From positions 192,001 to 256,000 of the forward strand of contig JAVRCV020000052.1 of assembly GCA_034530615.2 (NCBI GenBank): a stretch of DNA of 64,000 nucleotides, in the 5' to 3' direction. Shown one piece after another: positions 33,083 to 51,217 of the stretch. Below the pieces are notes generated by a model, which saw only the letters and a list, made by a program, of their open reading frames with translations, was not told the DNA's origin and did no database searches. The DNA is from Aulosira sp. ZfuVER01. Lineage in GTDB: Bacteria > Cyanobacteriota > Cyanobacteriia > Cyanobacteriales > Nostocaceae. Position numbers and translations under genes: made by a program. The first letter of the stretch is position 1, and the number at the start of each line of letters is the position of its first letter.

Positions 33083-33721
33083 ATGGCAACAATTTTAAGA
33101 GACTGGAGCTATCGTTATCAGTGGCTATATGACGGCATATCAGGTTTAGCGGCATTAAGTGTAGGTGGTGAAACTCGGTTTCGGCAACTAGCTTTGCAAG
33201 GTTTAACAATCAACTCAGACACTAAAATTTTAGATTTATGTTGTGGCAGCGGTCAGGCAACACAATTTTTGGTGAAATATTCACAAAATGTAACAGGATT
33301 GGATGCCTCTCCCTTATCTTTGAAACGGGCGAAGCAGAATGTACCTAGCGCCTCCTACTTGGAAGCGTTTGCAGAAAATATGCCCTTTTCTGATTGTGAG
33401 TTTGATGTTGTGCATACCAGTGCGGCATTACACGAGATGGAACCTGAGCAATTGCGAAAAATAATTAATGAAGTTTATCGAGTTCTGAAACCAGGGGGTG
33501 TGTTCACGCTAGTGGATTTTCACGCTCCCACAAATCCTATATTTTGGCCTGGGGTGTCACTATTTCTGTTGTTGTTTGAGACAGAAACAGCTTGGCAATT
33601 ACTCAAGACTGATTTACCAGGGTTGTTGGCAGAAATAGGGTTTGAAGTTAGCGAACCTAAATTATATGCAGGTGGAAGTTTACAGGTGATTCAGGCAAAG
33701 AAATCAAAGATAAGTGGTTAA
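33083..33721 (+). CDS. Class I SAM-dependent methyltransferase (UbiE-like)
   Basis: ILDLCCGSG motif I; LHEM; RVLKPGG. Confidence 0.9.
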   Translation: MATILRDWSYRYQWLYDGISGLAALSVGGETRFRQLALQGLTINSDTKILDLCCGSGQATQFLVKYSQNVTGLDASPLSLKRAKQNVPSASYLEAFAENMPFSDCEFDVVHTSAALHEMEPEQLRKIINEVYRVLKPGGVFTLVDFHAPTNPIFWPGVSLFLLLFETETAWQLLKTDLPGLLAEIGFEVSEPKLYAGGSLQVIQAKKSKISG

Positions 33722-41594: not shown

Positions 41595-42026
41595 TTAAAA
41601 TTGGGTATTGTCCTTTCGACTAGGTTCTAGCTGCCACTGTTTGAGGATAAGTATTGACCAGAAAATAAATCCTAATATTGCTAAACTAGTTAACGCATCA
41701 GTCCAGATAAAGAGATGCATCTTCGCTGAGAACTGTGACAGATTTCCATAAAAGTAATGTCCTGGGCTTACTAGACCTGTGAATGAGTAGACCAATAGAC
41801 ATGCATAAGCCAGCCAAAACCTTCGATATTTATACAACCAATACCCAGTAATTCCTATGGCTGTCAGAATAAGCCATGATTGATAAATTGAAGAGGCTGT
41901 AATCCAGACTGGTTGAGGATACCGCTCGATGAACAAATAATTATCAGTGAAGTGAATAGCTGTAGAAATAATGCTGGTAATTAGCAGCATTTTCAACAAC
42001 CTCTGATATTTGACCTCAAGATTCAT
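41595..42026 (-). CDS. Hypothetical 4-TM membrane protein
   Basis: Four hydrophobic segments; HFTDNY and GHYFYG motifs; GAGG RBS upstream. Confidence 0.7.
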   Translation of the reverse strand: MNLEVKYQRLLKMLLITSIISTAIHFTDNYLFIERYPQPVWITASSIYQSWLILTAIGITGYWLYKYRRFWLAYACLLVYSFTGLVSPGHYFYGNLSQFSAKMHLFIWTDALTSLAILGFIFWSILILKQWQLEPSRKDNTQF

Positions 42027-42191: not shown

Positions 42192-42578
42192 ATGCTGGGT
42201 AATTTTCAACAAAGCCAACTGCGGATAGAAATCGAAGCGTCAGCAAGTGCAATTCATGACAGTCTGCTGCGTCCAGTGCAATTACAAAAATGGCTGTTAG
42301 GGCAACGCTTTGCTCCTGGAATGCCAGAAGAACTCTACTCCGGCTTCCAGTTTACTACCTGGACTGGACCCGTTGCGATTCATCATCAAGTAAATGTGGC
42401 TAAACCTAATTGCCTCCGCTTTTTACTGAGTGGTGGAATTGATGGGTTTCATGAATGGTATTGGGGAGAAGGTTGGGTGCAGTCCCGCTTGGAAGGAGTG
42501 TCAATGCTACCCCTAAACTTAGGACAAACTTTAAGTTTATTGAGTTTGCGCCAGTTTTTGACGACTCAAAGATCTTGA
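42192..42578 (+). CDS. Conserved hypothetical protein (SRPBCC/cyclase-like)
   Basis: 128 aa ORF; GIDGFHEWYWGEGWVQSRLEG. Confidence 0.7.
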   Translation: MLGNFQQSQLRIEIEASASAIHDSLLRPVQLQKWLLGQRFAPGMPEELYSGFQFTTWTGPVAIHHQVNVAKPNCLRFLLSGGIDGFHEWYWGEGWVQSRLEGVSMLPLNLGQTLSLLSLRQFLTTQRS

Positions 42579-42609: not shown

Positions 42610-43944
42610 TTACAAATTGGTTGTGAGCCTTGCTTTTCTCAAAACAAATGTCAGAACCGTCTCTTGTTTGGAAATTATGTCGGCGGTTACTTGCATACCA
42701 GGTTGAATGGCATAGGATTGATTGCCTTTGGTGAGATGAAGTCTATCTGGCTGGATAGTCACCTCATAGTAAGGTGAAACCCCGATATTACTGTTAGTTT
42801 GAGGTGTAATCGCATCGGCGGTAATGCCTCTGACAGCGCCATTGATAGTGCCATAATCCGGATAAGGATAGGCAGAGATTCTCATAATTACTTTGCCTTC
42901 TGAACATTCAGTGACTTGAGCAGCTTTGCATAAGCGAACCTTACTAATATCAGCAGCATCTACACGAGCTTTGACTAGCAAAGGAGCTTGACTAGGAGCA
43001 ATTTGAGCGATCGCTTGTCCTGGTTGTACAACCTGGCCAGGATTTCTGATGTCCAGTTTCAAGACGCTTCCGGCTTCTAAAGTCCGAATCACAGTTTTTT
43101 GTAAATCCCGATTAATTTGTGTAATTTCTTGCTCGTCTAGGTTAATTTTATTCTGAAGGGCTATTTGACCTTGGATCAAGCTTTCTCGTTCTTTATTCAA
43201 TGCGGCGAGGGTAGACTCACCCTTGGCTTTTTCTTGGGCTATCCGTTCTTGGGTCATCGTCACAGCAGCTATACTCGGATTGAGTCCAGTTTTAGCGCGT
43301 TGCAGTTTGGCGATCGCTGCTTTAAAAGCTTGTTCTTTTTCCTTAATTTGCAGTGTGGCGATCGCTCCCGTATTACCTAACTGTTTATACCGCTTCAGTT
43401 CTTCCTTGGCAAACTCTAAAGTAGCTTTTGCTTCTTCTACTTCTGATTGAGTGATATTTTGTCTATCTTGATATTCTCTTTGATTACGACTGAGATCTGC
43501 TTTTGTCGAAGCTATCTCCCTTTGGATGGAATTAGCCTCAGCAGTTATTTGAGTTTGTAGCGCCTTCAATTGCGCATTTATTTGCGAAATTTGTGATTGA
43601 TTCTGTCGAATATTGTCAATGAGTTGGCTTTTTTTAGTCAGGAGTTGAGAGTCATCAATGATTGCGATCGCTTCACCCTTGGCAAGCGTCTGATTTTCTT
43701 TTACTAAGATAGCTTTAACAATTCCTTGACCTGATGCCTCAATAATTCTCTGTTCTCCTGCGGGACGGACAGTCGCAGGCGATCGCACAGTAATCGGATA
43801 TTTGATAATCGCCGCTAACAAAACCGCCAAACCACAAGTTCCGATCAAAACAACTCCCCCCAATTTTGTCCAACGGCTAATCGCCGGAACAAGTTCGTCA
43901 ATTTGGATTTGACGCAGTAATTCTGGGTTATGTTCACTCAGCAT
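42610..43944 (-). CDS. HlyD-family membrane fusion protein (copy 1)
   Basis: N-terminal TM, GIVKAILVKENQ, long coiled coil, AYPYPDYG, IQPGMQVTADI. Confidence 0.93.
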   Translation of the reverse strand: MLSEHNPELLRQIQIDELVPAISRWTKLGGVVLIGTCGLAVLLAAIIKYPITVRSPATVRPAGEQRIIEASGQGIVKAILVKENQTLAKGEAIAIIDDSQLLTKKSQLIDNIRQNQSQISQINAQLKALQTQITAEANSIQREIASTKADLSRNQREYQDRQNITQSEVEEAKATLEFAKEELKRYKQLGNTGAIATLQIKEKEQAFKAAIAKLQRAKTGLNPSIAAVTMTQERIAQEKAKGESTLAALNKERESLIQGQIALQNKINLDEQEITQINRDLQKTVIRTLEAGSVLKLDIRNPGQVVQPGQAIAQIAPSQAPLLVKARVDAADISKVRLCKAAQVTECSEGKVIMRISAYPYPDYGTINGAVRGITADAITPQTNSNIGVSPYYEVTIQPDRLHLTKGNQSYAIQPGMQVTADIISKQETVLTFVLRKARLTTNL

Positions 43945-44188
43945 GAGTAGAAAACCAGCGCTAAATAAAAGTTAATAAAAATGTCGCTAGAGTCTGATTG
44001 ATATGAGGCTTGCTTTAGTCTTCATCTCTGCTAAATGTGTTGGCTTGAAAGCTACACATCAAATAACCGCCTCATAATCAAAATTTATCTATATTTTACT
44101 GTTTTTTTAATTTTTGCTTAATCTTCCTTTAATAAATGAATCTGATGTCAATACTCAATCTCTTCCATCAGCAATTTTACTGGATAAT

Positions 44189-44230
44189 TGTAGCCTGAGT
44201 TACAAAAAAAATTAATATAAAAAATACCAT
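44189..44230 (+). promoter_or_regulatory. Candidate NtcA-activated promoter upstream of the RiPP precursor
   Basis: TGTA-GCCTGAGT-TACA (44189-44204), then 21 nt after TAC a TAN3T -10 box TACCAT (44225-44230). Confidence 0.5.
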
Positions 44231-44698
44231 CTTAGTTTTTTCTAGAAATTGCTCATTTAATTTACAAAAATTTAAAAATATATCTACTCATAAAAATCAA
44301 TTTCTCTACGCTGAGTAGAATAGCAGAGGTCGTTATGGTTAAAAAAATTTATAATTCTCAGCCTGCGTATGAGATGTCATAACCTTTGATAAATCTCAAA
44401 CAAGGAGGTTGATAAAGTTGAGAAACTTCCTTTATCAAAAAGGCTTATCTCTCTAGATATTTATACTTATCTCTATCTAAAGGATGATTTTCGCTGGAAA
44501 AAATAGCATTTAGTATAAATTGCATGAGTTAGCGCAAATCAATCAATTCAAACATTAAGAGATCAGATGCATTTACCAAGTTAAATGCACAAATTTTGAA
44601 CAGGTTAATTGATTGATGCTGACTTATAAATTGCTCAATCAATTATCAGAGCAATTTCCATTCAAACCAAAATTTGAATTAGGAACGGAGGCTTTATA

Positions 44699-44878
44699 AT
44701 GGCTAACGCATCAGGTTATGAACTATTTTCAATTTCTGAAAATTTTTTAACAGAATTATCAGCAGAAGATGAGTCTATAATTACAGGTGGCGGTGGCTCC
44801 TGCTACGGTGGAAGTAAGAGCAAGAGCAAGAAGAGCAAGAGCAAGAAGAGCAAGAGCAAGAGCAAAAAGTACTGCTAA
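44699..44878 (+). CDS. RiPP precursor peptide, 59 aa: double-glycine leader plus Ser/Lys-repeat core (absent from the ORF track)
   Basis: GGAGG RBS at 44687-44691, 7 nt before ATG; MANASGYELFSISENFLTELSAEDESIITGG|GGSCYGGSKSKSKKSKSKKSKSKSKKYC*; ELS..E...ITGG leader; first gene of a kinase/HopA1/C39-ABC run. Confidence 0.9.
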   Translation: MANASGYELFSISENFLTELSAEDESIITGGGGSCYGGSKSKSKKSKSKKSKSKSKKYC

Positions 44879-44976
44879 TAAACTCTGTAAAGGGCAATTA
44901 ATAGGACTAGTAGTTATAGCCCATTAACACAGGTTTCATTCTTTAGCTAAGGCTTCAAACCTATTTTGTTATAAAG

Positions 44977-45023
44977 CTTGTTGTAAAAATTTGGAAACTA
45001 CCGCTCCATATTTTTACAACAAG
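44977..45023 (+). terminator. Long stem-loop between precursor and kinase genes (attenuator or mRNA stabiliser)
   Basis: Perfect 14-bp stem CTTGTTGTAAAAAT / ATTTTTACAACAAG with inner TGGA/TCCA pairing; T-rich sequence follows. Confidence 0.7.
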
Positions 45024-45106
45024 TTTCTTGCAAGAATTTTTGGTTAATTTTTTTGATTTTGCGAGCAGTGCAGTTATCAGATTTCTTTTCAAATTAAGTA
45101 TAGATA

Positions 45107-46246
45107 ATGACATTTTTATTAAGCGATAGCAATTTTTTAGAGCATCTAATTGAACATAATTTATGTGAGGTTAAAGAACTAAAGATTAGCCAAATTGAAT
45201 CGAAAAGTTGTAAAAACTTTAATTTATTAGTGGTTTTCTCCAATAATCACCATCTGCTGATTAAGCAAGAACGCCATAACAAAGAAGGTAAAACTCATGG
45301 TGAGTTCTTGCAAGAATGGCGCATTCATGAGTGGTTGCAAAATTTTCAAGAACTAAGTGAATTTCGCGCAATTATATCTGAGGCGCTGCATTTTGATCCC
45401 ATTCGCTCAATTATTATTTTTAATTACCTTAACGAATATTGTGACTTAGAAGATTTTTACGACAACGAACATATTTTTCCCCAAGAAATCGCAGCATCTT
45501 TGGGAACAAGTGTAGCCACAATTCATCGCAAAACTTGGAAATGTCAGAAATATAAAGAATTTTTAGCAAAAGACTCTCAAGATATTAGCAAACATCCTAA
45601 CTTTCTCCGTGGTTTAGAAAGAATTAAACCAGAAATTTTTGCTCATATTTCTCTTGAGAATCTAAAATTCTTTAAGCTCTATCAGCGCCATGATCGCCTG
45701 AGACAAGCGATCGCTCAACTACAAACTGCTTACCAAAGTTGTTGTTTAATCCACAATGACTTAAAGCTTAACAATATTTTATTGCATAACCAATGGAAGC
45801 AATCCCCAAATCAAGCCATAGTTCGCTTGATTGATTGGGAAAAATTTGCTTGGGGAGATCCAGCATTGGATCTAGGAACAATCATCGCTAGTTACTTAAA
45901 TATTTGGTTAGGGAGTTTAGTTATCAGTACAGATATTGATTTGCAAACAGCTTTGCGGTTAGCCGGTACTCCCCTAGATCAGATCCAACCTAGTATATTT
46001 TCTTTAATAAAAGCTTATTTAACTCACTTTCCCGAAATTTTGAAGTTACGTCCTAATTTTTTGCAATTGGTAATGCAATTTACTGGTCTGGCATTAGTTG
46101 AAAAAATACAAATAAAAATAGATTATCACGAAGCTTTTGGCAATATAGGTATCTGTATGCTTCAGGTTGCCAATACTTTATTGTGCCATCCAGATAAATC
46201 AATCCCGATTATTTTGGGACACAGCGCCTCTGAGCTAAATTTTTAA
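45107..46246 (+). CDS. APH/choline-kinase-fold phosphotransferase (LanK/TvaC-like peptide kinase)
   Basis: KNFNLLV, LLIKQE, catalytic loop IHNDLKLNNIL, LIDWE, GDPALDLG. Confidence 0.88.
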   Translation: MTFLLSDSNFLEHLIEHNLCEVKELKISQIESKSCKNFNLLVVFSNNHHLLIKQERHNKEGKTHGEFLQEWRIHEWLQNFQELSEFRAIISEALHFDPIRSIIIFNYLNEYCDLEDFYDNEHIFPQEIAASLGTSVATIHRKTWKCQKYKEFLAKDSQDISKHPNFLRGLERIKPEIFAHISLENLKFFKLYQRHDRLRQAIAQLQTAYQSCCLIHNDLKLNNILLHNQWKQSPNQAIVRLIDWEKFAWGDPALDLGTIIASYLNIWLGSLVISTDIDLQTALRLAGTPLDQIQPSIFSLIKAYLTHFPEILKLRPNFLQLVMQFTGLALVEKIQIKIDYHEAFGNIGICMLQVANTLLCHPDKSIPIILGHSASELNF

Positions 46247-46302
46247 CCCACTTAGTATAAAAAATACAACTTTTAATTAAAAAATCATATTAAATTACAA
46301 AA

Positions 46303-47391
46303 TTGATGATGCAATTGCGAGATTTACTACCTCATGAGATACCAAATGCTGCCTTAGAAGACATCGTTACCAAGGTTCAGATTCAATCTGACTTTACTAT
46401 TACCCATGCAGATTACCAACCTTTAAAACTTGCTGATGAAATCGTAGTATCTCTTCAAAACTTACCGATCGAAATCCAGAATAGGTATTTGAATCTGCAA
46501 TTGCGGAATTTTCTCTATGGCATTTATTACAATGGCCAATTAAAAGCTACCCTAGCAAACAATGTAAATCCAGATAGTTTATTAGAAATAAAAAAGCTAG
46601 AGAATAATCAAGCTGGCGCATTCAACCGAGAATTTTACGAAGACTTGCAGAAAAGTAACTGTGGTAAAGGCTACTTTGATCCAAGATGGCTTGTAGTGAA
46701 GCAAGAAAGCGATCATCTACTTGCTGTGCAAAAAGATGATTTGACATTGCATATTGAACCAGAACGCTATCTGCAATTAGCTGAACAATCGGCTAATGTT
46801 GGTGATGAAGTTGCTGTGCTGATGCCTCCTAACCTAATAGAACAGGCATATTATGTGGCAGTAAGTGATGCAGGTTTGGTGAATAAAACTCTTGCAGTAA
46901 ATATTAATTTTAATTTTATCTCTGAAGGTGCGATCGCATTGATGAAAAGTCTGACACAGCAACTTAACGAAATCAATATCCCTTTCACTTTTAAGGTTTT
47001 ATACGATCCTGATAATTACCAGCGTTGTGACTGTGGGGTGCTGCAATTTGAAAGTCACAACTACCACATAGTAAAGCAAATTCTTCAGACTGTGTATATA
47101 GCAAACAAATGCCTTTTTCGGGATTTAGTACCTCTGTTTACAAAGTTACTAGCGCCAGGGCTGAGTTTAGCAGAAGAACCAAATAATAAATTTACTGACC
47201 AAGAGAATTTTGGCATGAACCGCTGCCGAATATTGGCTAATGCCTTATTAGAAGCTTGGCAAGAAGGTGACAACTCCCAACAAGGAAAAATGCATTATGT
47301 AGATCGGCATTTCTCCCAACACTTAATTGATCTGCAACGCCCTTATCTTAATGCCAACTCTGAGGATATCTATCCGATGTTGGATTGTTGA
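46303..47391 (+). CDS. HopA1-family protein (LanY/TvaD-like phospho-lyase)
   Basis: LRNFLYGIYYNG, N.GKGYFDPRW, IPFTFKVLY.P..Y.R.D.GVL, VPLFTK.LAPGL.LAEEP, FGMNRC, RPYLN. Confidence 0.85.
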   Translation: MMMQLRDLLPHEIPNAALEDIVTKVQIQSDFTITHADYQPLKLADEIVVSLQNLPIEIQNRYLNLQLRNFLYGIYYNGQLKATLANNVNPDSLLEIKKLENNQAGAFNREFYEDLQKSNCGKGYFDPRWLVVKQESDHLLAVQKDDLTLHIEPERYLQLAEQSANVGDEVAVLMPPNLIEQAYYVAVSDAGLVNKTLAVNINFNFISEGAIALMKSLTQQLNEINIPFTFKVLYDPDNYQRCDCGVLQFESHNYHIVKQILQTVYIANKCLFRDLVPLFTKLLAPGLSLAEEPNNKFTDQENFGMNRCRILANALLEAWQEGDNSQQGKMHYVDRHFSQHLIDLQRPYLNANSEDIYPMLDC

Positions 47392-47480
47392 TTAGATGAT
47401 GACGATTAATTACCCTATTACCAGGGTGCGCGTTATAGCATGATTGTATTTGCTTGATCGGGGATATTTAGGATAGGGAT

Positions 47481-49634
47481 GTGTCTAATCTAAAATACCG
47501 AGTTATAAGACAATATAGCGAAGAAGATTGTGGGGCTGCTTGTATTGCTTCTATTGCCAAATATTACGGACGGAGTTTTGCTCTCAACCGCATCCGTGAA
47601 GCGGTAGGCACTGGGCAACTGGGAACTACTTTGTTAGGTCTGAGACGAGGAATAGAAGCTTTTGGCTTTAATGCACGTTCCGGCAAAGCATCATCCGATT
47701 TTCTCCACAAGCTGGAACAAATGCCCTTACCAGCAATCATCCACTGGAAGGGTAATCATTGGGTGATTTTGTACGGTCGGCGCGGTAAAAATTATATCAT
47801 TGGCGATCCTGCCATTGGTCTACGTTATCTCTCCAAACAGGAGTTAATTGAGGGTTGGACTAATTGGGTACTGCTACTCTTACAGCCAGATCCCAAGCGT
47901 TTTTTTGTCCAATCGGATGACAAAACTAACCACCTGGAGAAATTTCTTCGGTTAATCCTACCCTACCGAGGTGTGATTTTTGAAGCTGTACTTTGTGCCC
48001 AATTTATTGGTCTGCTTTCTTTAGCTTCACCTTTCTTTATTCAAATTCTCACGGATGATGTTTTAGTTAGAGGAGATTTTCAGCTGCTTTTTGGTATAGT
48101 GCTGGCAGTTACAGTGATGTATATTGTCAGAAGTGGGCTGAAACTAGTAGAAAATATTCTAATAGCTCATTTTGCGCAACGTTTAGAATTAACTTTAACC
48201 CTAGAATTTGGTCAACAAATTCTCCGCCTCCCACTTTCTTATTATGAGTCTCGTCGTAGTGGTGAAATTGTTAGCCGATTAAGAGATATTCAACAAATTA
48301 ATAAATTAATCGCCGATGCGATCGTGAGTTTTCCCAGTAAGTTTTTTATTGCCAGCGTTTCTTTTATCTTGATGTTATTTTATAGCTGGAAACTGACAAT
48401 CACAGGCTTAGCAATCGCTGGGGTGATGACTCTATCTACAGTAGTTTTTCTGCCCGCACTCCAGCAGAAAAATCGTAAACTCATGGTTTTAGAAGCCGAA
48501 AACCAAGGTGTGCTAGTAGAAACATTTAAGGGAGCATTAACGCTAAAAACTACTACAGCTGCTCCGGAATTTTGGGAAGAATTTCAGCGCCGATTTAGTC
48601 AATTAGCAAACCTGGAATTGAGTACTATAAAAATTGCGATTATTAATAAGCAATTTTCTAGGTTAGTTTCTGATATTGGTGGTGCTACCTTACTATATAT
48701 TGGTAGTAGCCTGGTGATTAGCAAAGAGTTAAGTATCGGTCAGTTGCTAGCATTCACTAGCCTCAATTATAATGTTGGGTCTTTAATTGATTTTTTTGTT
48801 GACTTTGCAGACGATTTTACTCGTGTCAGAACAGCGACATCAAGACTTCAGGAAGTCGTCAATTCTACACCAGAAACTCAAGGAGATGCTAACAAATCTT
48901 GGACAGAAATTCCTGATAATGCAGACATTGTTTGCAGCAACCTAAACTTTCACTATCCTGGCAGAGTTGAATTACTAGAGAACTTTTCTGTTACTCTTCC
49001 TGGTAGTAAAGTCATTGCTCTAATTGGCGCATCAGGTTGTGGTAAAAGTTCTCTGGCAAAAATCATTGCTGGGTTATATACAACTCAATCAGGAAATATC
49101 CGCTTTGGCATTTATAACCAGCAAGATTTGTCTTTAGACTGTCTGCGAAGACAGGTGGTGCTTGTTCCCCAAGAACCTCACTTTTGGAGTCGTTCAATTA
49201 TTGAAAATTTTCGCTTAGGTTCTCCCAACGTTTCCTTTAAAAAAATTGTCGAGGCTTGCCGAATTGCTGAGGCTGATGATTTTGTGAGCAAGCTACCCGA
49301 AAAATATCAAACCGTTTTAGGTGAATTTGGTGCTAACATTTCTGGCGGACAAAGACAAAGATTAGCCATAGCTAGAGCAATTGTCAACGATCCACCCATT
49401 CTGATTTTAGATGAATCAACTGCTGGACTCGATCCTGTGAGCGAAGCTAAAGTTTTACATAAACTATTCTCCTATCGTCAAGGTAAAACCACGATTCTCA
49501 TTAGCCACCGTCCCAGAGTAATTGAACGTGCTGATTGGATTGTGGTATTAGAGCAGGGTAGGTTGAAAATACAAGGTTCTTTAGAAAAATTGCGATCGCT
49601 ACCTGGTAAGCATTTAGATTTTTTAACTCCCTAA
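47481..49634 (+). CDS. Peptidase-containing ABC transporter (C39 + TMD + ATPase)
   Basis: QYSEEDCGAAC (catalytic Cys), HWKGNHW, IGDP; Walker A GASGCGKS, ISGGQRQR, ILDES. Confidence 0.95.
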   Translation: MSNLKYRVIRQYSEEDCGAACIASIAKYYGRSFALNRIREAVGTGQLGTTLLGLRRGIEAFGFNARSGKASSDFLHKLEQMPLPAIIHWKGNHWVILYGRRGKNYIIGDPAIGLRYLSKQELIEGWTNWVLLLLQPDPKRFFVQSDDKTNHLEKFLRLILPYRGVIFEAVLCAQFIGLLSLASPFFIQILTDDVLVRGDFQLLFGIVLAVTVMYIVRSGLKLVENILIAHFAQRLELTLTLEFGQQILRLPLSYYESRRSGEIVSRLRDIQQINKLIADAIVSFPSKFFIASVSFILMLFYSWKLTITGLAIAGVMTLSTVVFLPALQQKNRKLMVLEAENQGVLVETFKGALTLKTTTAAPEFWEEFQRRFSQLANLELSTIKIAIINKQFSRLVSDIGGATLLYIGSSLVISKELSIGQLLAFTSLNYNVGSLIDFFVDFADDFTRVRTATSRLQEVVNSTPETQGDANKSWTEIPDNADIVCSNLNFHYPGRVELLENFSVTLPGSKVIALIGASGCGKSSLAKIIAGLYTTQSGNIRFGIYNQQDLSLDCLRRQVVLVPQEPHFWSRSIIENFRLGSPNVSFKKIVEACRIAEADDFVSKLPEKYQTVLGEFGANISGGQRQRLAIARAIVNDPPILILDESTAGLDPVSEAKVLHKLFSYRQGKTTILISHRPRVIERADWIVVLEQGRLKIQGSLEKLRSLPGKHLDFLTP

Positions 49635-49726
49635 TCACCTCTCATCTTCAGTATTTAATACTAGCTTTTGGATAATCCGACGCAAGCGACTGCGATTCAA
49701 AAACTTCAATACAATGTGGCAATAGC

Positions 49727-51061
49727 CTATAAATCTGTTAGCAACCTTGCTTTTCTTAACATAAATGTCAATACTGTTTCTTGTTGGGCAATAATTTCAG
49801 CCGTTACTTCCATCCCAGATTGAATAGCATAGGATTGATTGCTTTTGCTCAGATTGAGTTGATCGGGCTGGATGATTACCTCATAGTAAGGTACAGATGC
49901 GAGATTGCTATTAGTTTGAGGCGTAATTGCATCAGATGTAATACCTCTGACAGCACCATTTAGCGTACCGTAATCTGGGTAAGGATAGGCAGAAATCCGC
50001 ATAATGACTCTACCCTCTGTACATTGCTTTACTTGGATGGCTTTACATAGCCGCACTTTACTAATATCAGCAGCAACTACACGAGCTTTAACAACTAAAG
50101 GCGCTTGATTGGGGGAAATTTGCGCGATCGCATCTCCAGCGCGTACCACTTGTCCAGGATTTCGGATTTCTAGTTTCAGGATAGTACCTGTGTCTGAGGC
50201 TCGAATGATAGTTTTTTGTAGGTCTGTTGAGACTTGTTTGAATTCTGTTTGAGCAGTGTTGATTTGGTTTTGAATTTCAACGTGGCGACGGATTAGTTCT
50301 TCTTGTTCTTTCTTCAAAATCGCCAGGGTAGATTCACCCTTGGCTTTTTCTTGAGCAATTCGTTCACTTGCGATCGCTACTGTTGCATTACTAGGGTTAA
50401 GTCCAGCTTTGGCACGTTGGAGTCTAGCCAATGACGCTTTAAACGCCTGTTCTTTCTCCTTAATTTGCAGAGTGGCGATCGCTCCTGTATTCCCCAGTTG
50501 CTGATAGCGCTTCATTTCTTCCTTAGCCAATTCTAGAGCGGCTTCCGCTTCTTGCACTTGTGTCTGAGTAGCGATCTGTTGGTCTTGATAATCCCGTTGG
50601 TTGCGACTTAAGTCAGCTTCAGCAGAGGCGATCGCTCGTTGTATAGAATTAGATTCAGCAGTGATTTGAGTTTTTAAGGCCTTGATTTGGGCAACAATTT
50701 GTGCTAACTGTAAATTATTCTGGTGAATCGTGCCTAAAATTTGGCTTTTTTTGGTTTCCAGTTGAGTAGAGTCAATGTAGGCGATCGCATCCCCCTGATT
50801 GACTACCTGATTTTCTTTCACCAAAATACTTTTGACAATTCCTTCACTAGTTGATTGCACTAAGCGGACATCACCAGTCGGACGGACTGTGGCAGATGCG
50901 GTAACGGTGACATTGTACTGAGTCACCCCAGCCAAAATCAAAGCTACACCTACAGTTCCAATGAGGAATAAACCCCCTAATGTTGTCCAAAGACTAATTG
51001 GTGGCAGAAATTGGTCACTGCTGATTGGGCGAATCAAGTCGGGACTGGGGTCGCTATGCAT
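49727..51061 (-). CDS. HlyD-family membrane fusion protein (copy 2)
   Basis: Likely start MHSDPSPDL (51061), by comparison with copy 1; same TM / coiled-coil / AYPYPDYG layout. Confidence 0.93.
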   Translation of the reverse strand: MHSDPSPDLIRPISSDQFLPPISLWTTLGGLFLIGTVGVALILAGVTQYNVTVTASATVRPTGDVRLVQSTSEGIVKSILVKENQVVNQGDAIAYIDSTQLETKKSQILGTIHQNNLQLAQIVAQIKALKTQITAESNSIQRAIASAEADLSRNQRDYQDQQIATQTQVQEAEAALELAKEEMKRYQQLGNTGAIATLQIKEKEQAFKASLARLQRAKAGLNPSNATVAIASERIAQEKAKGESTLAILKKEQEELIRRHVEIQNQINTAQTEFKQVSTDLQKTIIRASDTGTILKLEIRNPGQVVRAGDAIAQISPNQAPLVVKARVVAADISKVRLCKAIQVKQCTEGRVIMRISAYPYPDYGTLNGAVRGITSDAITPQTNSNLASVPYYEVIIQPDQLNLSKSNQSYAIQSGMEVTAEIIAQQETVLTFMLRKARLLTDL

Positions 51062-51217
51062 GAGCGCGAGAATAAGTAAGCAGCATATCAATTTACACAC
51101 AATAAATCCTGTATAGTCAATGGAAATACTACGGGGTTTTTTGTGGCTGCCTTAATTTCACTCTAACCTTCAGCAGCTAGGGCTTGCTCGACTGTTAATT
51201 TTATACTTGAGGTGTTG

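Follow-up and report, generated by a model that had tools for sequence, protein, structure and literature searches.

A predicted pseudo-lyase beside a serine/lysine-repeat precursor in a secreted-peptide cassette of Aulosira

What does a pair of a kinase and a HopA1 protein make when the second partner has lost part of its catalytic set? The question is raised by a small cassette in Aulosira sp. ZfuVER01, within the 64,000-nucleotide stretch of contig JAVRCV020000052.1 analysed here (the window; coordinates are window positions), in which a precursor of 59 amino acids (aa) with a Gly-Gly (GG) leader and a Ser/Lys-repeat core precedes an APH-family kinase, a HopA1-fold protein and an exporter that joins a C39 peptidase to an ATP-binding cassette (ABC) transporter (Table 1). 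An earlier note on this DNA had taken the kinase and HopA1 protein for a working split Ser/Thr dehydratase, a reading that, judged from sequence, probably fails, since two of CaoY's four lyase residues, the equivalent of Arg187 among them, are missing from the HopA1 protein. We instead favour, with a probability of roughly 0.55, a product that is a secreted, multiply phosphorylated Ser/Lys peptide, made by the kinase together with a pseudo-lyase and following the logic of phospeptin with different enzymes.

Altered lyase residues and cationic cores

The lyase residues of CaoY are R187, K219, R229 and Y236 (Liang et al. 2022, PMC9486802). Among the results of that study covered here, CaoY-K219A yielded solely phosphorylated peptide, with CaoY-R187A elimination all but ceased and most of the peptide was phosphorylated, and CaoY-R229Q eliminated inefficiently; Y236 is conserved with Y158 of SpvC, and no Y236 mutant appears in those results. 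We mapped the four positions by aligning to LxmY (9dk1_B, E 8e-12) a profile built from 13 canonical HopA1 proteins of cyanobacteria; in this sequence-based map the profile R, K, R and Y fall on LxmY chain residues 189, 221, 231 and 238, with spacings of 32, 10 and 17 (the last counted from K) identical to those of CaoY. By this map the window protein would have N200 in place of R187, K231 for K219, R241 for R229 and Q248 in place of Y236, leaving the LanY set with two of its four residues replaced. Its structural model (predicted local distance difference test 89) resembles LxmY (Foldseek E 4.5e-16, template modelling score 0.70, 18% identity); with that fold in the model and two catalytic positions changed, the protein therefore appears to keep the LanY fold with an incomplete catalytic set. 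As a control, 11/11 HopA1-LanC fusions among distant representatives retain R-K-R-Y. The full set is kept in only 44 of the 143 scored 50%-identity representatives near the window family.

The kinase next door is intact in its catalytic residues (K53, E70, H216, D218, K220, N223, D243 and E245). It is thus an APH kinase of the kind expected of a LanK, although its NCBIfam LxmK match is weak (82 bits, under the cut-off of 315), and a search of it against solved structures gave no match at E 0.01.

Loss of the lyase Arg goes together with the composition of the precursor core. Our pool comprised loci of at least 2.5 kb (the window itself and L001-L303, from which two duplicates of the window were dropped) and held 240 distinct HopA1 proteins longer than 280 aa: 158 with the canonical set (RKRY), 13 that keep the Arg with other changes and 69 without it. 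Seventeen of these 69 go with a kinase that lacks its catalytic Asp, nearly all of them second pairs beside another pair; the other 52 loci divide into 29 with a cationic low-complexity core, nine with another core and 14 with no core called, three of the last carrying cationic cores on inspection by hand. We defined a cationic low-complexity core by K+R of at least 17% and hydrophobic residues below 20%, a cut-off chosen after seeing the data. All 29 loci with such a core lack the lyase Arg, against none of the 105 RKRY loci (of 158) in which a core was called, and at a K+R cut-off of 20% the counts were 28/55 non-Arg loci against 0/105. Thirteen of the 29 came from a search with the precursor profile only, their lyases unseen beforehand, and all 13 proved Arg-less.

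Of the 29 cationic-core loci, four keep the Tyr, 21 the Lys and 19 the second Arg, and the least-kept of 76 otherwise invariant lyase columns are R200 (kept in 0), Q180 (2), Y248 (4) and S302 (5); six catalytic residues of the kinase are conserved in 27/27. A second lineage has lost both Arg and Lys (9/9), yet has similar S/K cores. An aldo-keto reductase homologue, which may consume dehydroalanine, occurs in 63/158 canonical loci and in 0/29 cationic ones.

The altered lyase is nonetheless under purifying selection. Its ratio of nonsynonymous to synonymous substitution rates (dN/dS) is 0.18 against the relative at L039, with a median of 0.19 in seven Arg-less pairs versus 0.14 in 30/56 canonical pairs, and the ratio of lyase to kinase divergence is 1.24 in the main clade, 1.49 in the second lineage and 0.96 in canonical pairs (the pairs are not independent). 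Residues 108-178 of the lyase retain 0.90 of otherwise invariant columns, versus 0.70 for the catalytic region, and they overlap the LxmY sheet that contacts the kinase in LxmKY, as described in the covered part of a review (PMC12141560). In the portions of the two studies covered here, TvaC alone gave no phosphopeptide and formed it together with dead TvaD (bioRxiv 10.1101/2020.08.21.260521), and CaoK was mostly insoluble without CaoY (PMC9486802). By analogy with these pairs, a scaffold role of the lyase fits all these observations. In five of five genomes checked (one of them 75% complete) the Arg-less protein is the sole HopA1 match, and therefore no intact LanY would act in trans there.

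Proposed pathway and competing readings

The precursor is a real gene and no chance open-reading frame (ORF), because a GGAGG ribosome-binding site lies ahead of it, its leader is under purifying selection (dN/dS 0.11 against the relative G013) and homologues lie upstream of the kinase in many genomes. The earlier note had called it unannotated; the 59-aa ORF is as described there, but the exact sequence was already in NCBI nr, and ESM Atlas matches to it were all below 0.8. The unmodified core has a monoisotopic mass of 2970.57, and the run of Gly at the leader end leaves the C39 cut position uncertain by 1-2 residues. The intergenic region between precursor and kinase has a predicted fold of -51.3 kcal/mol (z -2.8; 0/200 shuffles as stable), and an inverted repeat matching the hairpin there is found in G013; the hairpin would likely stabilise or terminate the precursor message.

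The pathway would stop at phosphoserine, because the kinase is intact and the HopA1 protein lacks the catalytic Arg and Tyr. The precursor, whose gene is present and whose expression is putative, would bind the kinase through its leader, as with CaoK and LxmK, and the kinase, to judge by its motifs, would phosphorylate several of the nine core serines. The HopA1 protein would eliminate no phosphate and would be retained to hold the kinase in a folded, active state, on the model of TvaC/TvaD and CaoK/CaoY. The C39 transporter, which carries the peptidase Cys17/His93/Asp109 motifs and the Walker and signature motifs, and which is accompanied by a HlyD partner and a GG-leader peptide, as is typical of C39 export, would cleave after the GG and, together with HlyD and a TolC whose gene lies elsewhere, export the core; outside the cell the two Cys might, speculatively, close a disulfide loop. 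It would take five or six phosphates to neutralise the +11 charge of the core. As for purpose, we favour, speculatively, an extracellular polyampholyte for adhesion or for metal or mineral binding; a toxic polycation masked until after export is a speculative alternative.

Several observations weigh against this proposal. The catalytic base Lys (K231) and R241 are kept in the window protein, and the Lys is kept in 26/29 main-clade members, about the median rate (0.88) of otherwise invariant columns. Dead-lyase complexes add few phosphates in the covered parts of two studies (CaoA up to 2-4, PMC9486802; TvaA one, bioRxiv 10.1101/2020.08.21.260521), and phosphorylation may therefore be sparse. 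A Lys beside phosphoserine hindered elimination in CaoA, which the authors ascribed to repulsion from R187/K219 (PMC9486802, in the part covered), and this cuts both ways: cationic cores would escape elimination, and an active lyase might drop its Arg. Two other pairs of the window genome, on contigs C17 and C55, have the canonical RKRY set and might act in trans, and the sole other carrier among the same-genus genomes, G013, has the cassette partly deleted. The kinase tree shows three Arg-less groups, with three changes in the best tree and a Shimodaira-Hasegawa-like approximate likelihood ratio (SH-aLRT) support of 100 for the window clade, which suggests several independent origins of Arg loss; a single origin was not rejected, however, by the approximately unbiased test (p-AU 0.167 with 23 rows, 0.276 minus the five most distant). 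The independent pairs number no more than 2-3 (sign test p at least 0.5), and the association between Arg loss and core thus reflects a few lineages and not 29 events. Of the 38 Arg-less loci in which a core was called, nine have cores that are not cationic (four Moorena-type loci, for example), and a few cationic cores, those of L293 and L296, contain 0-1 Ser/Thr; phosphoserine therefore cannot explain everything.

These exceptions have features of their own. L156, L175, L176 and L201, which depart from the core rule, combine Arg-less lyases (N/S-K-R-C) with long Asn/Ile-rich non-cationic cores. L293 and L296 have long (KG)n cores with Tyr/Cys/His tails, and their adjoining kinases read HNDLTLDNF instead of HNDLKLNNI; the target residue of these kinases may differ, conceivably being Tyr.

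The lyase might instead be re-tuned and not dead, a reading that the retained Lys and second Arg favour, with loss of the Arg relieving repulsion with a Lys-rich core while Lys231 still eliminates phosphate and a substrate Lys or Arg fills the vacant place. The product would then be a peptide of the poly-dehydroalanine/lysine type, in which lanthionine or lysinoalanine crosslinks might arise non-enzymatically. Purifying selection on the lyase agrees with this, as do the Glu found at the Arg site in 6/29 cationic-core loci and the Lys hindrance reported for CaoA, by which cationic cores would select for Arg loss. We nevertheless consider this reading, the main rival, rather unlikely. No single residue takes the place of the Arg (N 12, E 6, Q 3, Y 3, others), the same loci have lost the Tyr in 25/29 and the second Arg in 10/29, the lineage that lacks the Lys too has similar cores, the lyase diverges at 1.2-1.5 times the level of its kinase against about 1.0 in canonical pairs, and the cassette has neither a cyclase nor a reductase that could stabilise nine dehydroalanines.

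The phosphate might also be a temporary mask or serve in chaperoning, or the HopA1 protein might carry out some other chemistry on phosphoserine, the product being a bare cationic peptide that extracellular phosphatases unmask. In favour of this, the family trait is cationic low complexity and not Ser as such (SK, RS, RT, KN and KG repeats, a few with hardly any Ser/Thr), and a +11 core left without modification would presumably bind the nucleic acids of its producer. Ser/Thr adjoins Lys/Arg in most cationic cores, however, with 15 such adjacent pairs in the window core, and no phosphatase gene was recognised in the cassette, and we give this account a low probability, although its first steps are identical to those of the phosphopeptide pathway and genomes alone cannot separate the two. 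That the cassette is silent or decaying in the window genome, with no product at all, seems very improbable: it occurs at this site in only 2/15 same-genus genomes, 829 bp are deleted from the copy in G013, and the window HopA1 alone has Asn at the otherwise conserved Tyr202, but all frames are open with intact motifs, and dN/dS of the cassette genes is 0.09-0.34 against G013 and about 0.2 against L039.

Limits of the cassette and related pairs

The six ORFs and their families (HlyD, APH, HopA1 and C39-ABC) were borne out by an ORF check and by Pfam. The low GC content of the central part is likewise real (33.3% over 44000-47000 versus 41.3% for the genome, a value as low being reached in 0.45% of the genome's 3-kb windows). 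A promoter scan gave one site against 5.5 expected, and a look-up of RNA records listed none for 43900-47400, which says nothing on expression either way.

Table 1 Features of the cassette and its right-hand neighbour, in window coordinates.
Feature	Position	Strand	Remarks
hlyD, cassette HlyD adaptor	42610..43944	-	divergent from precursor; Pfam HlyD_3
Precursor gene, 59 aa	44699..44878	+	
Precursor leader, 31 aa, ends ITGG	44699..44791	+	predicted C39 cut site
Precursor core GGSCYGGSKSKSKKSKSKKSKSKSKKYC	44792..44878	+	28 aa; 9 Ser, 11 Lys, 2 Cys, 2 Tyr
Long RNA hairpin, precursor-kinase intergenic region	44974..45026	+	
APH-family LanK-like Ser/Thr kinase	45107..46246	+	Pfam APH, E 4.5e-9
HopA1/LanY-fold protein, predicted pseudo-lyase	46303..47391	+	PF17914, E 4.6e-53
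C39 peptidase-ABC exporter, 717 aa	47481..49634	+	peptidase and ABC motifs
Second hlyD, resident gene of the locus	49727..51100	-	

The cassette consists of hlyD, precursor, kinase, HopA1 and C39 genes, about 42610-49634. Both hlyD genes had been counted as part of the cluster, which does not hold for the right-hand one: in 8 of the 14 same-genus genomes compared (15 with the window genome) the site has a 128-aa gene, one hlyD and usp in place and no cassette, and that single hlyD is 82-84% identical to the right-hand gene, which is therefore a resident of the locus. It may or may not serve the window exporter. The left hlyD matches its counterpart in the G013 cassette at 93% identity, against ~65-68% for the resident hlyD of relatives, and the layout with a divergent upstream hlyD recurs in L039, L040, L094 and L104. 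The remaining same-genus genomes comprise four without hlyD at the site, one that ends at a contig edge after hlyD, and G013 (L038:9288-11790), in which the 829-bp deletion takes away the last part of the HopA1 gene together with the C39 domain and there is no second hlyD. At either edge of the cassette (42610-42640 and 49727-49760) lies the 3' end of one of the hlyD genes; these two ends are similar and in direct orientation, and recombination there could insert or delete the cassette. Clean recombination chimeras between the hlyD copies were considered and rejected: the right-hand gene is resident-like (mostly 73-90%) along most of its length, and the left-hand gene is 54-81% identical to residents and resident-like only at the 3' junction. 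Of two further genes to the left, at 41595-42026 (143 aa) and 42192-42578 (128 aa), neither has a Pfam or NCBIfam match, and the 128-aa gene is found in 15/15 genomes of the genus.

The window genome holds three further kinase/HopA1 pairs (contigs C17, C55 and C11). On C17 (L001:333-5942) a canonical RKRY pair lies in an operon with LanM (DUF4135 plus LANC_like) and two Cys-containing precursors; on C55 (L002:4480-19537) another canonical pair accompanies an aldo-keto reductase, two peptidyl-prolyl isomerases and five hydrophobic GG precursors, with a radical SAM gene and Nif11-like precursors upstream. The C11 pair (L003:9991-12477) adjoins a thioesterase gene and belongs, with L269, L273, L274 and L278-L282, to orphan pairs with no precursor called, whose lyases have lost the catalytic Lys (Q in 9/10, E in 1/10) but are well conserved, at a dN/dS of about 0.12; these would be a second kind of pseudo-lyase, perhaps acting on a protein.

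Two other arrangements recur. A second, doubly degenerate pair (kinase HNNxQ, lyase V/I-E-L-K) lies directly behind a canonical one in L105, L111, L112, L116, L118, L125, L126, L142, L147, L219 and L221, where precursors are rich in S-L-L-x-C motifs, and may be a LanX-like cyclase or a binding module. Kinase-HopA1 fusions of ~800 aa (P0015, P0024, P0051, P0055, P0056, P0059, P0066, P0072, P0075, P0087, P0098 and L286:257-2659) lack the lyase Arg in 12/12 scored, whereas the kinase motifs HxD and DWE are retained in all 11 checked.

Known systems and significance

The compact pathway described earlier, free of class V and thioamitide tailoring enzymes, finds support here: a Pfam scan of 35 distinct window ORFs (rpoB, rpoC and a few short ORFs lay outside it) detected no LanC, homo-oligomeric flavin-containing Cys decarboxylase (HFCD), F420 reductase or YcaO/TfuA. 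A methyltransferase is likewise absent from the cluster, though not from the window, where one Pfam match lies at 33083-33718, ~9 kb off beyond unrelated genes; this gene and a fructosamine kinase (33817) were rejected as cluster parts, being 8-9 kb distant, past genes that are syntenic in relatives. With class V LanK/LanY (CaoK/CaoY; LxmK/LxmY, PDB 9DK1-3) and with TvaC/TvaD the cassette shares an APH kinase adjoining a HopA1-fold protein; it differs in the missing R187 and Y236 equivalents, the GG leader with C39 export and the Ser/Lys-repeat core. The cluster has neither the cyclase (LanC or LanX) or Cys decarboxylase of class V nor the YcaO/TfuA and HFCD decarboxylase of thioamitides. It is therefore built like a class V dehydratase but falls outside the class, its lyase set being incomplete and a cyclase lacking. 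Class V products are reported only from actinobacteria in the covered part of a 2025 review (PMC12328550).

No characterised product was found in the literature searched, as the earlier note had supposed, but the cluster type was already catalogued, because Eyles et al. (2021, PMC8153245; covered in part) list cyanobacterial HopA1/phosphotransferase clusters with such precursors. Neither a characterised LanK/LanY product from cyanobacteria nor a LanY pseudo-lyase turned up in our search, which did not extend to most subscription journals or to the PDF supplement of Eyles et al. The Eyles survey counts 1,340 HopA1 proteins, 96% of them adjoining a phosphotransferase, and its cyanobacterial Family 1A comprises 570 peptides in 183 clusters with GG leaders, variable cores and products undetermined. 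Its supplement, as far as covered, gives two Scytonema peptides in network 103 with a leader very similar to that of the window and SKS/SRS cores, and two Ser/Lys-rich peptides in network 1; the listed leaders nearest to that of the window are those of network 103 and other Ser/Lys cores fall in network 1, membership of which is set by a 40% identity cut-off. The window has the HopA1 protein, phosphotransferase and upstream GG-leader peptide of these clusters, in a cyanobacterium whose closest named relatives in this respect are cyanobacterial, and like Family 1A and network 103 it combines kinase and HopA1 with a peptidase/transporter, whereas Family 1A clusters typically have several precursors and this one has a single one. 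In the parts covered, Eyles et al. do not single out cationic cores or examine lyase residues, and describe no product.

The logic we propose is that of phospeptin (EmbA/EmbM; Paoli et al. 2022, PMC9259500, covered in part), where a dehydratase with mutated elimination residues makes a poly-phosphorylated linear product. By analogy, and in a different enzyme family, the window likewise appears to have elimination residues mutated and phosphorylation residues kept; EmbM, however, is a single LanM-like domain acting on Thr, whereas the window has a two-protein class V-type complex (APH and HopA1) and a cationic Ser/Lys repeat. Phosphate is also the retained modification in linear polyphosphorylated peptides (LPP; PMC13381572) and in phosphorylated cyanobactins (PMC12639078), as proposed here, although, in the parts of these papers covered, LPP relies on an HprK kinase, a recognition element (RRE) and a signal peptidase, with phosphates stacked on one Ser, and the cyanobactins on a PKc-like domain in the G protein, neither with an APH/HopA1 pair. 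Within the same parts, neither the 2025 list of phosphorylated peptides made on ribosomes and modified after translation (RiPPs; PMC12639078) nor the LPP paper names an APH/HopA1 route.

The cassette is thus real and of a catalogued but uncharacterised kind, and its twist is a conserved pseudo-lyase tied to Ser/Lys-repeat cores. Beyond this locus we tentatively envisage, as possible rather than probable, a widespread undescribed class of cyanobacterial secreted phosphopeptides, in which a class V dehydratase became a kinase with a pseudo-lyase scaffold that makes polyampholytes of pSer/pThr-Lys/Arg repeats with Cys/Tyr/His tails. The conversion from dehydratase to scaffold possibly took place several times, and in some genomes the pair is fused into one protein. 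Such polyampholytes would presumably be bacterial counterparts of silaffin-like or mussel-glue-like adhesive, mineral-binding peptides. A kinase that targets SK, RS or RT repeats preceded by a short leader would be useful for making defined phosphopeptides, and a lyase that borrowed its catalytic cation from the substrate would be new too. Genome-mining rules, to our knowledge, read any APH and HopA1 pair as a class V dehydratase, and we know of few RiPPs that retain phosphate; if the proposal is true, a sizeable branch in cyanobacteria yields phosphopeptides instead, and the product could be predicted from four residues.

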